UHGV virus genome: UHGV-1746214
Length of the DNA: 10,630 nucleotides
Source: a virus
Strand: one strand, 5' to 3'
The notes below the pieces were generated by a model. That model had not been told where the DNA came from, searched no databases, and worked only from the letters and a program-made list of their open reading frames with translations. Below are positions 3,614 to 10,630 of this stretch, in pieces. Position 1 is the stretch's first letter. Every line of letters begins with the position of its first letter. The position numbers were made by a program, and so were the translations under genes.

Positions 3614-4832
3614 TGGCGTTATCCTTCTGCTTACCGGCTTTACTGCCATCGGAGGGTTTCGTGGTCATGTTCATCGGTGTGAGATAGACATCACCACCGG
3701 GACGCGGATTCATATCTTCCAGGTCGCGGCAGTCATTGGGAGAGTAAATTCCCCAGTTGATCCCGGTGGCGTAGGCTTCAAAACGGGACTTCATATCCCC
3801 GCGCAGTAACGCCCCGGCGTTAAATTTGGCGTAATAAGCGCCCTGCTTACTTTTTCGTACCAGTCCGGTGTTGATCCGCTGTTCGATGCGGGTCAGATAC
3901 GGCACCAGTGAATAGTTGATAAATCCCAGCCCCAGCTCTTCGATATTGTTGAAGGTGGCGCGATCGGTGTTCTGCACCATGTGCAATGGCACCCGGAACA
4001 GACGACAGATTTCTTCAAGCTGAAACTTGCGGGTTTCCAGGAACTGGCTGTCCTCGGCGTTCAGCGCCATCGACTTCCAGTCCAGCCCCATCTCAAGGAT
4101 CATCGGGCGGTGAGCATTACCAAGCCCGGTATGACGCTCCTCAAAATCTTTCTTCAGACGCTCATAAGCCTGATCCGACAGCGTCTGCTCTGTACGCAAC
4201 ACACCGGACGTCACCGCACCATTGCTGAACAGTCTGGCCCCGTGCTCTTCGGTCGCAGCTGCCAGCGATATTGCCTCGCGGGCATAGGCGACGGGATTCA
4301 GTCCCACCAGACCGTCCAGCGTCAGCGTGCGTACATGCCAGATATCCTCCTGGCTCAGTACATCCGTGGAACCGTCCGGGAATGTGACCTGATAGACCGG
4401 CTCCCAGCTACTGTTAAGCTTCGGTACCACACAGCCGGGATCGACGGGCAGCAGTTCAGCCACTTCGCCAAATGCTTTCACTTTGTAGGCGTAAAAGTTT
4501 CCCCGCAGGCACAGACAGGTGACCACCAGCTCCCAGAACTCCTGCGGCGTCATATAGCCATTGGGATGCGTGGAGATCAGCTTATGCAGACGTTCGCCGG
4601 TGGCTCTCTGTTTCAGGTTGCCGTTCAGGTGATACAGATTGCAGGGCAACATCCCGACCGACTCTGCCAGCACCCTGACGCAGGAAAAAACCGCCGTCAG
4701 TCGCATGGCCCGCTGGCTGCTGATCTGCTTTCCGGTATAGGTGTCATATGACAGCCCGATAGCATCCGCCAGCTCTGCTGGCGTGGTCACCGGCGCGTCA
4801 CTTTTTCGTTGAAATAATCCCGAAAAGAACAC
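3591..4832 (-). CDS. Portal protein, HK97 family
   Basis: 413-aa ORF immediately downstream of the terminase region; GTG start preceded by GGAGGT at 6-nt spacing; size and position match HK97-type portals. Confidence 0.9.
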   Translation of the reverse strand: MFFSGLFQRKSDAPVTTPAELADAIGLSYDTYTGKQISSQRAMRLTAVFSCVRVLAESVGMLPCNLYHLNGNLKQRATGERLHKLISTHPNGYMTPQEFWELVVTCLCLRGNFYAYKVKAFGEVAELLPVDPGCVVPKLNSSWEPVYQVTFPDGSTDVLSQEDIWHVRTLTLDGLVGLNPVAYAREAISLAAATEEHGARLFSNGAVTSGVLRTEQTLSDQAYERLKKDFEERHTGLGNAHRPMILEMGLDWKSMALNAEDSQFLETRKFQLEEICRLFRVPLHMVQNTDRATFNNIEELGLGFINYSLVPYLTRIEQRINTGLVRKSKQGAYYAKFNAGALLRGDMKSRFEAYATGINWGIYSPNDCRDLEDMNPRPGGDVYLTPMNMTTKPSDGSKAGKQKDNANADETTS

Positions 4833-5025: not shown

Positions 5026-6561
5026 TTAAAGCGAGCGGATGCCCACGCTGACCAGACGTTCAGACAGATCCGGCTCCGGTTCACCACCATTGACCAGCAT
5101 CCGGCTCATTGCTGTAAACATCGCAACAGGGCCGTCGATTTTGGCTTCCAGCGTGGATTTATTCGGGAAGATATTGTCGTTTTTGTCCGGTTTTACCGTA
5201 ACGTTAGACATCATCCAGTTCATGACCGGATGATTGCTGTGATGGAAACGCCCGGCATAGACCAGTGATTCCGTTTCCTTCATGGCCTCTGACAGATTAC
5301 GAACCGTCTGCGGAACCTCCACCAGCGGTATCCCTTCTTCGGCCAGTGCCAGGCTGAACTGCATCGCGCTCCACGGGTCAAATCCCAGTTCCCTGAGGTT
5401 TTCACCACCAATCCATTCCAGTAAGTCACTTTTTATCTGAGCATGATCGATAACATCACCATCCGTCAGAATCAGCTTCTCCATTTCTGCCCACTTCCGG
5501 TAAAGTTCTGCCTGCTGCCGCGAGCATCGTTCCAGCCGTCCTTCCGGAAGCCAGAATTTAAAATCGGCATGAACATGCCCGTTATCCGTTCGCCAGAGTT
5601 TTGCCGCCGCACAGATATCAATCTTATGAGCAAGGTCGACGCCGACCCACATGGGGTACGTTTTCAGCTCATGTCGTGGGGCAATGTATTCGCACTTCTC
5701 CCACTTAATCATGTCCATCCAGGCAGACTCTGCTGTTACCCACACATTCATGTGTTTCGTGAAAAAATTCACCCGCGCAGAGACCTGCTCCTTCGCTTTT
5801 TTCGCCAGGCGACGCAGATCATCCCAGCGTTTACAGATGCCCAGGCCAGGATTCGCTTTCTGCCAGACCGTTTCATCAAACGGATCATCTCCCTCATCGA
5901 GCGTGTAAATGATCGCAAAGTAGGAGTCGTCTTTTACCGCGCCCTCCACGTCGCTGTTATAGCCACGCAATACCTTGATGGCGTAATCACGCTGCTCGTA
6001 ACAAATCCCTTCCTTGTTAAACCCTGCCGTGGTGATACCAAATAAAAGGGACTGCAGACGGGCACCGGTCGCCGTTTCCAGAACGTCCCACACATCACGG
6101 GTTTTATGTGCATGCAGCTCATCAATAATGGCGCAGTGGATGTTCAGACCATCCAGGTTGTTTGCATCCGAGGAAAGCGGTTCAAATTTTGATGCGCTCT
6201 GCTCCTGGTAAATCGCCAGCTTGTTGAAATCAAACAATCTCCCGAGTGTCGACCGGGCTTTTCTGACCATATTTTTAGCGTCTTCAAACACGATTCTGGC
6301 CTGGTCACGCGTGGTTGCGGCTGAATACACCTCAGCCCCGCCTTCACCATCTGCCCCCGTCATATACAGACCGATACCCGATGACAGGGTTGATTTTGCG
6401 TTTTTACGGGCAACTTCGTTGTAGGCCGTCCGGAACCGGCGCACCATCACCGGGCGTCCGCTGCCATCGCTGCGCATGACAACTTCCCCGGTCTCTTCAT
6501 TGACCAGCGGAATGACAAAACCAAAAATATTAATGAGGATAAATACATGCCAGTCCATCAA
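5026..6561 (-). CDS. Terminase large subunit (Terminase_1-like), main 511-codon portion downstream of an in-frame amber codon
   Basis: Contains a P-loop-like VARKNAKST segment and a Walker-B-like [11 protein letters not shown]; located between the small terminase subunit and portal; the same frame continues upstream through a TAG at 6571-6573 into the 70-codon N-terminal piece. Confidence 0.9.
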
Positions 6562-6570
6562 CTCAATAGG

Positions 6571-6783
6571 CTAGCCTGCCAGCGCCCCTTTTACATGAGG
6601 CACAAATTTGTAGAAATTCAGGATGTGCTGCGCACGGGGTTCACTGAAATAAATCCCCCGCTTCTCGCCGTACTTCAGATCATCAAGAAAACGCTGGCAG
6701 GCCAGACGGACAAATTCGCCAGCAACAATTTCTCCTGCAACAACACGTTCGGCGTAGCGGATCCCGTCAGCCACTTTTGCCAT
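6571..6783 (-). CDS. Terminase large subunit N-terminal fragment (70 codons ending at in-frame TAG)
   Basis: ATG overlaps the small-subunit stop (ATGA); the LACQRFLDDL and PHVKGALAG segments resemble N-termini of large terminase subunits from memory; in frame with 5026..6561. Confidence 0.7.
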   Translation of the reverse strand: MAKVADGIRYAERVVAGEIVAGEFVRLACQRFLDDLKYGEKRGIYFSEPRAQHILNFYKFVPHVKGALAG

Positions 6784-7265
6784 CAGTCTCTCGCTTTTAA
6801 AAGCTCCGCCAGCGGATCGACATCATCCGGTCCGGCGATATTTACTTTAGCCCGGCTTGCCGGTGACATGCCAAACTCTGCAAGCATTGCCCGGATCCGC
6901 TTCCAGGCATCCGCTTTCATTGCCGCCGCGGGGTGCGCCTTAATCAGCACATCACCGTTCTGTGTTTTCGTGCGGTAGGTATACCCCTCAACATCGAGTG
7001 TTTCGCAGTGATGCCGGTATTCGGTGTAGGCTTCCACCAGTAACTCGAGTGCACGCGCATCAAGCTGAGAAATGATCCCTTCCGCATTCAGCTCTTCCGC
7101 CATTCGCCTGAACCAGTACTTCCCCTGCGCCCCTAAATGTTGCGGAATTTTAGGGAGACCTTTTTCATCCTTTTTGGCGGTTTTTTTGGGGGCTTTAACT
7201 GGGCGCTTTGAGGGGTTACCTCGTATCAAATGCAGGCGTGGCGGGGTTTTCGGAGGTCCTGACAT
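6783..7265 (-). CDS. Terminase small subunit (P27 family-like)
   Basis: 160-aa ORF with a Lys/Pro-rich N-terminus and a C-terminal EFGMSPASRAK motif typical of P27-family small terminases; immediately upstream of and overlapping the large subunit. Confidence 0.85.
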   Translation of the reverse strand: MSGPPKTPPRLHLIRGNPSKRPVKAPKKTAKKDEKGLPKIPQHLGAQGKYWFRRMAEELNAEGIISQLDARALELLVEAYTEYRHHCETLDVEGYTYRTKTQNGDVLIKAHPAAAMKADAWKRIRAMLAEFGMSPASRAKVNIAGPDDVDPLAELLKARD

Positions 7266-7329
7266 AATCGGTTTTACCTATCAATAGTTTGTTAACATTC
7301 CCAAAAAAAGTTTTCGAACCTGCGGCGAT

Positions 7330-7405
7330 GTGAGGAAGGGTCAGGCGGCGGTCCTGAAGCGCGAAAGGGGTCAGGGATTTGATCCCCCCTCCCCCCTGAA
7401 GATGG
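7330..7405. other. Candidate cos / packaging-site region (GC-rich motif cluster)
   Basis: Intergenic region upstream of the small terminase gene; GGCGGCGGTCCT at 7344-7355 resembles the lambda cosN core as I recall it; CCTGAAG is repeated at 7353-7359 and 7395-7401, flanking an imperfect G-run/C-run palindrome. Confidence 0.25.
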
Positions 7406-7505
7406 CAGCAAGAAACCACGCAAAAAGAAGATACTGGTCATCCATCAGGATGCTCAGCATGATGTCTTCAGTTAATCTCAATAAATAAACGATGGAGTCT
7501 AATAA

Positions 7506-8021
7506 ATGGATAAAACCAGAAAATATGACAGAGCCTTACAACTTGAAATCCTCAACGCCCTTATAGATTGTGCTCCTAACTCTTTAAACAAGGCACAGGA
7601 ACAAGACCTCATTGAGAAGTTTGACAGCTATGATCACTTTGTGGCGTGCATGTTATACCTTGAAATGCATGGTCTCGTTTCTACACCCTTCGTACGCAGC
7701 GATACCATGGATGGCGTTGATTTTATCTTCAATGCCCCGTACTGCAACATTACAGAGAAAGGAATTGATTTTCTTCTTGATGATGGCGGCTTAAGTGCGA
7801 TCCTTAAAGTTCAAACCGTTCGGTTACACAGTGACACGATTGTTGCCCTTGAGGATATAATCCGTGTCGCAAATATACCTGAAGATCAGAAGAAGGGATT
7901 GATTTCAAAACTCCGAGAGCTTCCGGGAGACGCCATAAAACATTTGACCCTACAGTTACTGACTCAGGGGGTTCTGAATCTACCGAACGCACTTCGACTA
8001 ATTCAAACAACCCTCCAGTAG
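7506..8021 (+). CDS. Hypothetical protein (171 aa), moron-like accessory gene on the opposite strand
   Basis: Only convincing plus-strand ORF; GGAG Shine-Dalgarno 8 nt upstream of the ATG; visibly AT-rich compared with flanking phage genes (about 38% GC counted over its first 61 nt); followed by a hairpin; no recognised motif. Confidence 0.7.
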   Translation: MDKTRKYDRALQLEILNALIDCAPNSLNKAQEQDLIEKFDSYDHFVACMLYLEMHGLVSTPFVRSDTMDGVDFIFNAPYCNITEKGIDFLLDDGGLSAILKVQTVRLHSDTIVALEDIIRVANIPEDQKKGLISKLRELPGDAIKHLTLQLLTQGVLNLPNALRLIQTTLQ

Positions 8022-8037
8022 GGCTAAACTCATCTGA

Positions 8038-8063
8038 GGGGCGAATTAACTCAAATTTGCCCC
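8038..8063 (+). terminator. Hairpin downstream of the plus-strand ORF (possible intrinsic terminator)
   Basis: GGGGCGAA / TTTGCCCC stem (8 bp including one G-U pair) with a 10-nt loop, 17 nt after the TAG stop; a TTTTT run follows about 9 nt downstream. Confidence 0.4.
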
Positions 8064-8156
8064 ATCCCAGCTTTTTACTTAAAACAACCCAAAATTCCTT
8101 CCGGGTATCTGCATGAATGTAGAAACTATTTTTATGCATTACAGCAGTGAATATTA

Positions 8157-8507
8157 TCATCGAATACGTTCTCTTGCTGTCTTCGCTCTGTGGCATTCCC
8201 AGCATAACGACTCAAGATTGGAATCATCATCAGTACCACCATGAGCTTTTGGGATAATGTGGTCTACAGTCCTGGCCTCAACAGCCCGCCCATTGCGCAG
8301 GCAGTTCTGACACAGATGATTATCACGCTTCAATACGCGCGCACGTATGGTATCCCATTTCGAACCATAGCCACGCTGGTGGCGGCTCAGTCCGCGTTGA
8401 TGCTTTACCCATCCTTCGCCACGATGTTTATCACAGTAACCAGAACTGTCTGTGGTTGTACCTGCACATCCACGCTTACGGCAGGCGCGTGGGGTTTGTG
8501 ATGGCAT
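8157..8507 (-). CDS. HNH endonuclease (terminase-associated type)
   Basis: 116-aa ORF with Cys-rich N-terminus and the HNH core HIIPKAHGGTDDDSNLESLCWECHRAKT; located upstream of the terminase genes as in HK97-like phages. Confidence 0.9.
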   Translation of the reverse strand: MPSQTPRACRKRGCAGTTTDSSGYCDKHRGEGWVKHQRGLSRHQRGYGSKWDTIRARVLKRDNHLCQNCLRNGRAVEARTVDHIIPKAHGGTDDDSNLESLCWECHRAKTARERIR

Positions 8508-10619: not shown

Positions 10620-10630
10620 AGATCGGAAGA
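10620..10630. other. Illumina adapter remnant (AGATCGGAAGA)
   Basis: Matches the start of the standard adapter read-through sequence AGATCGGAAGAGC as I recall it; reverse complement of the window's first 15 nt. Confidence 0.8.

Follow-up and report, generated by a model that had tools for sequence, protein, structure and literature searches.

Where would the terminase of this prophage cut its DNA, and on which side of a gene inserted into its packaging module would the cut fall? The DNA analysed here (the window, 10,630 nt) comes from a lambdoid prophage and spans its late region, whose genes lie on the minus strand. The original prediction had placed a cos site at 7266-7505, in the intergenic region upstream of the small terminase (TerS) gene, and had left 8022-8156, on the far side of the inserted gene, as an alternative. 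Region 7266-7505 is non-coding and is flanked by the TerS gene and a plus-strand ORF (Table 1). Within it, the minus strand from 7396 to 7301 reads GGGGGGAGGGGGGATCAAATC, 23 nt, GGAC[CGCCGCCTGA]CCCTTCCTCACATCGCCGCAGGTTCGAAAACTTTTTTTGG, with the predicted cohesive end in square brackets. On the strength of sequence comparison, we consider it very probable that this stretch represents an HK97-type cos, that of a temperate phage with 3' overhangs and an HNH protein needed for cutting. As an HK97-type cos in a phage with a P27-family terminase, it is an ordinary feature of a known category, and nothing in the assignment should surprise a phage specialist.

Table 1. Features of the packaging region and of the predicted cos site (window coordinates; signed positions are counted from the predicted cut on the TerS-sense strand)
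Feature	Position	Strand	Remarks
Rz	9314-8850	minus	
Terminase-associated HNH endonuclease	8157..8507	minus	Pfam HNH, E = 2e-17
Low-GC cassette (moron)	7407..8153 (approx.)	plus	between HNH stop codon and cos left half
171-aa ORF in cassette	7506-8021	plus	phrog_3983, unknown function
cos site (very probable)	7301-7396	minus	HK97-type
Upstream conserved box	7376..7396	minus	G-run and GATCAAATC; -36 to -56
Variable spacer of fixed length	7353..7375	minus	23 nt in the window and phiKO2, usually 22 nt in relatives
Conserved nick-site core	7344..7354	minus	GGACCGCCGCC; -14 to -4
Predicted 10-nt 3'-protruding cohesive end	7341..7350	minus	CGCCGCCTGA on minus, TCAGGCGGCG on plus
Predicted nick, minus strand	7341/7340	minus	
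Predicted nick, plus strand	7350/7351	plus	
Class-specific right half	7301..7340	minus	CCCTTCCTCACATCGCCGCAGGTTCGAAAACTTTTTTTGG; +1 to +40; T7 tract at 7303-7309
Putative TerS binding site	7329-7301	minus	roughly +12 to +40; elements CGCCGCAGG and T7 tract
TerS leader with ribosome-binding region	7266..7300	minus	ATTGATAGGTAAAACCGATT; precedes ATG at 7265
TerS, P27 family	6783..7265	minus	Pfam Terminase_4, E = 1e-25
Large terminase (TerL)	5026..6783	minus	Pfam TerL_ATPase and TerL_nuclease

The packaging genes have an HK97-like layout

The genes on the minus strand are ordered HNH, TerS, TerL, portal, S78 prohead protease and HK97-fold capsid, so that the candidate site has the layout of an HK97-type cos, between the HNH and TerS genes and upstream of an HK97-like head module. 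TerS scored 109 bits against the TIGR01558 sm_term_P27 model (cutoff 45.6), and BLASTP detected no similarity of this protein to HK97 gp1. TerL was 29% identical to HK97 gp2 over 455 aa (E = 2e-40), an identity that, with its Pfam domains, assigns it to the HK97 lineage of 3'-cos terminases. The HNH gene is intact and its product is 43% identical to HK97 gp74 over 47 aa; by analogy, the HNH protein may stimulate cleavage in the window phage as well, an activity known for HK97 gp74 only.

The site aligns with the genome ends of related phages

For both phiKO2 and HK97, we joined the two ends of the linear record and aligned the junction with the minus strand of the window. A sensitive search with 7266-7420 gave a match at the extreme right end of the phiKO2 record, and the window, phiKO2 and HK97 all carried GGGGGGATCAAATC, a 22-23-nt spacer and GAC-(C/T)GCCGC. 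The HK97 and phiKO2 records stop at one aligned position, three bases past the last of these elements. For Proteus phage Pm34, whose record runs the other way, the boundary falls exactly 10 nt upstream of that of HK97 and phiKO2, as expected if records carry a 3' overhang on the 3' end of whichever strand was deposited. The corresponding GGGGGGATCAAATC-N22/23-GAC-CGCCGCC of the window aligned with the ends of HK97, HK022, phiKO2, phiP27, SfV and Pm34, and this homology to mapped cos sites includes the cohesive-end core.

Five references share a single 10-nt slot after GGAC, base for base with the window: the final 10 nt of three records (HK97, CGCCGCCAAA; phiKO2, TGCCGCTTCA; and Pm34 after flipping, CGCCCCCTTA), the 10-nt 'cos-site' annotated by the authors of phiP27 (CGCCCGCCCC), and a 10-nt gap, TGCCCGCCCC, left by run-off sequencing of SfI virion DNA (PMC3636060). 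The sequence of the SfI gap was also found in the same slot of SfV. HK97 has 10-nt 3' overhangs, and its +1 is base 1 of the record (PMC9410871, PMC11331095, PMC5557969); for phiKO2 and Pm34, we infer from the record layout that the record ends are the experimentally mapped ends. The records of mEp235, Fraca and SfV begin at arbitrary points and were left out as end evidence. Comparison with the defined cos sites of related phages, which the original prediction had named as a check, thus led to one and the same slot, and the proposal of a cos upstream of TerS in an HNH-associated HK97-like module was supported by the homology with HK97, phiKO2, phiP27, SfI/SfV and Pm34. Transfer of the reference slot onto the window makes 7341-7350 the predicted cohesive end, and 10-nt 3' protruding ends are predicted for it from the relatives HK97 and SfI and from the 10-nt difference between the two record conventions.

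A literature search for the motif strings returned unrelated primer matches only. By comparison with Pm34, about 39 nt around the expected cut (-19 to +20) are missing from the 'circular' record of Providencia phage PSTRCR_117lys (MW358929), a gap that trimming of contig ends at physical termini would produce. The PhiR49_2 record (locus L001, 3586-3735) has a short 'hypothetical protein' CDS running across cos, and the equivalent 49-aa ORF of the window (7292-7441, minus) is most likely spurious.

The left half is shared and the right half follows the TerS type

The composite motif GGGGATCAAATC-N23-ACCGCCGCC matched the window once, at 7344-7387 on the minus strand, with 0 matches expected (200 shuffles), and more than 120 phage contigs carry it with a fixed spacing. 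When IMG/VR was scanned for GGGGATCAAATC-N(18-26)-ACCGCCGCC, at least 120 loci were obtained, and the spacer was exactly 22 nt in 118 of the 120 loci listed, although 18-26 nt were allowed. The window matches with N23 and not N22, as does phiKO2, whose spacer is also 23 nt. Downstream of the cut, the sequences fell into three classes, an HK97 gp1 type (GTTTGATTTTAACGCTAACCCGATTTTTTT), a window type (CCYTTYYTCACAYCGCCGCAGGTTMGAAAACTTTTTTTGG) and a phiKO2-like type (GTCGTTTTTTTATACCCGCGAAAAATG), which tracked the TerS type without exception, while the left half upstream of the cut was common to phages with unrelated TerS proteins.

A second scan used the window-type downstream motif only. Among the 125 unique loci, 108 carried CCGCCGCC at a constant distance, and the motif was followed by a window-type TerS (47-99% identity) in 116 of the 122 loci that could be assessed. 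The nick core was at least 90% conserved among these class B relatives, which had been chosen by the downstream motif alone, and is common to HK97 and phiKO2; the TerS leader is conserved in class B relatives immediately before the TerS start codon. No viral contig was found to terminate exactly at a class B site, because most contigs are prophage-derived.

HK97 TerS binds +15 to +29, where it reads a C:G step (C:G at position 21) and an A-tract (PMC11331095). Because the right half changes with the TerS type and HK97 TerS binds in this interval, we read 7301-7340, especially +12 to +40, as the likely TerS recognition half of the window site. A G/C step and a T7 tract are conserved at +14 to +38 in the window, with the tract displaced by 8 bp relative to HK97 (+32 to +38 vs +24 to +30) and with a TerS that has no gp1 similarity, and the binding mode is thus carried over from HK97 by analogy. 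On the minus strand CGCCGC forms a direct repeat, one copy in the cohesive end (-10 to -5; window 7344-7350) and the other in the putative TerS site (+14 to +19; window 7322-7328); the repeat is kept in window-type relatives but not in HK97.

The upstream box is kept in HK97, HK022, phiKO2, phiP27, SfV, Pm34 and more than 120 viral contigs, regardless of TerS type. Since it is shared across TerS types, we take it as read by TerL/HNH, perhaps for termination, and it is thus a candidate docking or termination element for these proteins; in lambda, cosQ serves termination. By the same inference, the shared left half as a whole would be the part read by TerL/HNH. The spacer between the two conserved blocks is near-identical to that of phiKO2, whereas PhiR49_2 and 606R7 carry an unrelated 22-nt spacer; since the window differs from other E. 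coli relatives in this way, the alignment suggests recombination inside cos, between its two conserved blocks.

Two smaller patterns had been put forward as marks of the site. CCTGAAG does occur at 7353-7359 and 7395-7401, but this direct repeat is absent from PhiR49_2 and 606R7, and an exact 7-mer repeat arose in 72% of shuffles of the 240 bp, so that it loses its value as evidence for cos. The palindrome bracketed by it is there, as GGGAT-TTG-ATCCC at 7374-7386, but HK97 has ATCTT in place of ATCCC and the strand gains no stability over shuffles from it (z = +1.5), so the palindrome was discounted too. An 8-mer repeat, GGGTCAGG (7338 and 7368), was set aside, being expected by chance and not kept in relatives, and the idea of a Dam site for the GATC in the box was dropped, 606R7, Pm34, phiP27 and SfV having GGTCAAATC.

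An inserted cassette and alternative readings of the region

The cassette between the HNH gene and cos has a GC content of 39-45%, compared with 51-57% in its flanks. Its 171-aa ORF gave no Pfam, NCBIfam or PADLOC match, and only weak matches in the PDB, to engineered protein A constructs. The HNH/TerS module was present in 1006 of 5426 complete E. coli genomes, only 27 of these (about 1006) having the insert; the cassette is shared with PhiR49_2 and C012 and missing from phage 606R7, and about 97% of the related prophages of E. coli lack it as well. One of the 14 matching records in the phage collection spanned the whole HNH-to-TerS stretch, and most of the others matched as two pieces covering about half the query. 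In 606R7, the 147-bp HNH-TerS spacer aligned only with 7266 to about 7406. The gap between HNH and cos is about 70 bp in 606R7, 319 bp in HK97 and 816 bp here.

A cos at 8022-8156, which would put the inserted gene at the left virion end, is suggested only by position, since 8022-8156 too falls between HNH and TerS. Yet insert-free relatives keep only the homologue of 7266 to about 7406 and have no counterpart of 8022-8156, which is part of the rare low-GC cassette and in which a scan for the cos motif allowing up to 3 mismatches found nothing. These comparisons settle the side of cos, and we consider the alternative location extremely improbable: because 8022-8156 is cassette-borne, the candidate is the conserved stretch adjoining TerS. 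Just as hard to credit is a lambda-type cosN in which GGCGGCGGTCCT would be a 12-nt 5' overhang. GGCGGCGGTCCT is found at 7344-7355, as originally predicted, and shares the heptamer GGCGGCG with the lambda cohesive end GGGCGGCGACCT (quoted in PMC12315714); the lambda site (cosQ-cosN-cosB) also resembles that of the window in having an upstream element, a GC-rich nick site and a TerS-binding half by the small terminase gene. However, lambda has a 12-nt 5' overhang against the predicted 10-nt 3' overhang here, an unrelated terminase and no HNH partner. The window TerS is of the P27 family and its TerL is related to HK97 gp2, not to Nu1/gpA, the module includes an HNH gene, the heptamer has the reverse orientation with respect to the terminase genes, the HK97 and SfI homologues give 10-nt 3' ends, and matches of at least 7 nt to the lambda 12-mer occurred in 7% of shuffles (p ~0.07). 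The description of a lambda-type cos (Nu1/gpA, the 12-nt 5' overhang GGGCGGCGACCT and flanking cosB R sites) does not fit the window. What stands of GGCGGCGGTCCT as a mark of cos is its overlap with 7 of the 10 nt of the predicted cohesive end, and its likeness to lambda comes down to the one heptamer.

The region could also be a transcription and translation control region only, with headful packaging from a pac site elsewhere. It does contain the TerS leader, the start signals of the inserted gene must fall in 7407-7505, and one weak promoter-like site was seen at 7259-7288. The homology to mapped cos ends and the change of the right half with TerS type argue against this reading, as do the lack of an Rfam match in 7100-8300 and of a stable fold (the cos strand folded no better than shuffles, z = +1.5), and we judge it very unlikely; promoter and terminator scans of 7200-8250 remained at background level. 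As for a headful pac site, both the terminase and the DNA site were homologous to those of cos phages with defined ends. A less remote possibility, still on the unlikely side, is that the site is cos by descent but idle, the truncated TerL being unable to cut and package its own DNA without a related helper terminase or an amber suppressor. TerL has an in-frame amber at codon 71 (6571-6573), TAG where E. coli C012 and PhiR49_2 have CAG, and this prophage copy is probably packaging-defective as a result. However, the window differs from the nearly identical C012 prophage, which has an intact TerL, at only four internal bases over 10.6 kb, and the two are 100% identical over 7200-8200, pointing to a recent mutation and an undamaged site. 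An idle site would alter who uses the cos, not its identity. Besides the amber, the single-base differences from C012 lie at 4135, 8494 and 9196, and the window termini (1-15 and 10621-10630) do not match the C012 prophage.

An HK97-type cos in 7266-7505, on the TerS side of the inserted gene, is thus the reading supported by the sequence comparisons. The original prediction had reasoned that the side of cos would fix which virion end carries the moron, and the comparison puts it at the right end: since cos lies on the TerS side, the cassette is predicted to be packaged last, about 66 bp from the end, with the start codon of the inserted gene 165 bp from the predicted terminus and its transcription directed away from it.

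Comparison with related systems

The HK97 cos resembles that of the window in its position between HNH and TerS, its G-run/GATCAAATC box, 22-23-nt spacer and GAC-CGCCGCC, its cut register, and a G/C step and A/T tract downstream, and TerL and HNH are homologous. It differs in its TerS family and the whole +1 to +40 half, in the spacer (22 vs 23 nt), in a T-tract 8 bp nearer the cut and in a TerL that is only 29% identical. The left half of Klebsiella phage phiKO2 is near-identical to that of the window, including the 23-nt spacer (CCTAACCCCTTTCGCGCTAAAGG vs CCTGACCCCTTTCGCGCTTCAGG), and its record ends in the same register, but its right half and TerS are different, and its core is ACTGCCGC as opposed to ACCGCCGC in the window.

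PhiP27, SfV/SfI and Pm34 share with the window the P27 TerS family and a 10-nt cohesive end in the same slot, with differing sequences (CGCCGCCTGA in the window, CGCCCCCTTA in Pm34, CGCCCGCCCC in phiP27 and TGCCCGCCCC in SfI), and unlike the window they have no gene inserted between HNH and cos. Pm34 is the most similar of them on the right side, with a TerS 63% identical to that of the window and a window-type right half (CCTCTTTTCACATCACCGCAGGTTAGAAAACTTTTTTTGG), whereas phiP27 and SfV have a third type of right half (GTC..TTTTTA.ACCCGCGAAA).

A matching stretch in a satellite-like element

In E. coli KE21 (NZ_JAPVBX010000001; locus L132, 7001-7056), a 56-bp stretch is 100% identical to window 7302-7357 and covers the nick sites and the putative TerS site. 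The element that carries it adjoins clpS and has the gene order capsid, protease, portal, connector, HNH, TerS, TerL, which is the order of capsid-forming PICIs (phage-inducible chromosomal islands; bioRxiv 10.1101/2022.09.08.507074). Its TerS and TerL are only 28% and 31% identical to those of the window. In its cos-like region the upstream box is degenerate, and a TerS-leader remnant is present that no TerS gene follows. A 501-bp region around the 56-bp stretch was found at a coverage of at least 80% in 45 complete E. coli genomes, KE21 included.

These arrangements raise a broader idea, which we consider doubtful and improbable as a whole: that the left half (G-run/GATCAAATC box, fixed spacer and GAC-CGCCGCC) is a portable module that TerL/HNH would read across at least three TerS families, the specificity coming only from a swappable right half, and that PICIs share cos with their helper or are cross-recognized by it. 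If true, this would be hard to square with the published view that packaging of satellite and helper exclude each other.

Proposed model of cleavage and its significance

We propose a model in which the P27-family TerS would bind the right half (a G/C step and then an A/T tract, at about +12 to +40) and hold TerL over the nick core, whereupon TerL and HNH would nick the two strands 10 nt apart, leaving the 3' overhangs CGCCGCCTGA and TCAGGCGGCG. Packaging would then proceed from +1 (7340), the left virion end, into TerS, TerL and the head genes and stop at the next cos, so that the right virion end would comprise the lysis genes, HNH, the cassette and 7341. The steps of TerS binding and TerL/HNH nicking are modelled on the biochemistry of HK97.

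For a prophage family that about 1000 of the 5426 complete E. coli genomes carry, the predicted genome ends are now base-exact, at a stretch that some records leave blank or call 'hypothetical protein'. The proposed division of cos, with a common half for cutting and a TerS-specific half for recognition, would help in building cosmids and transducing particles and in studying how packaging signals are borrowed by satellites.
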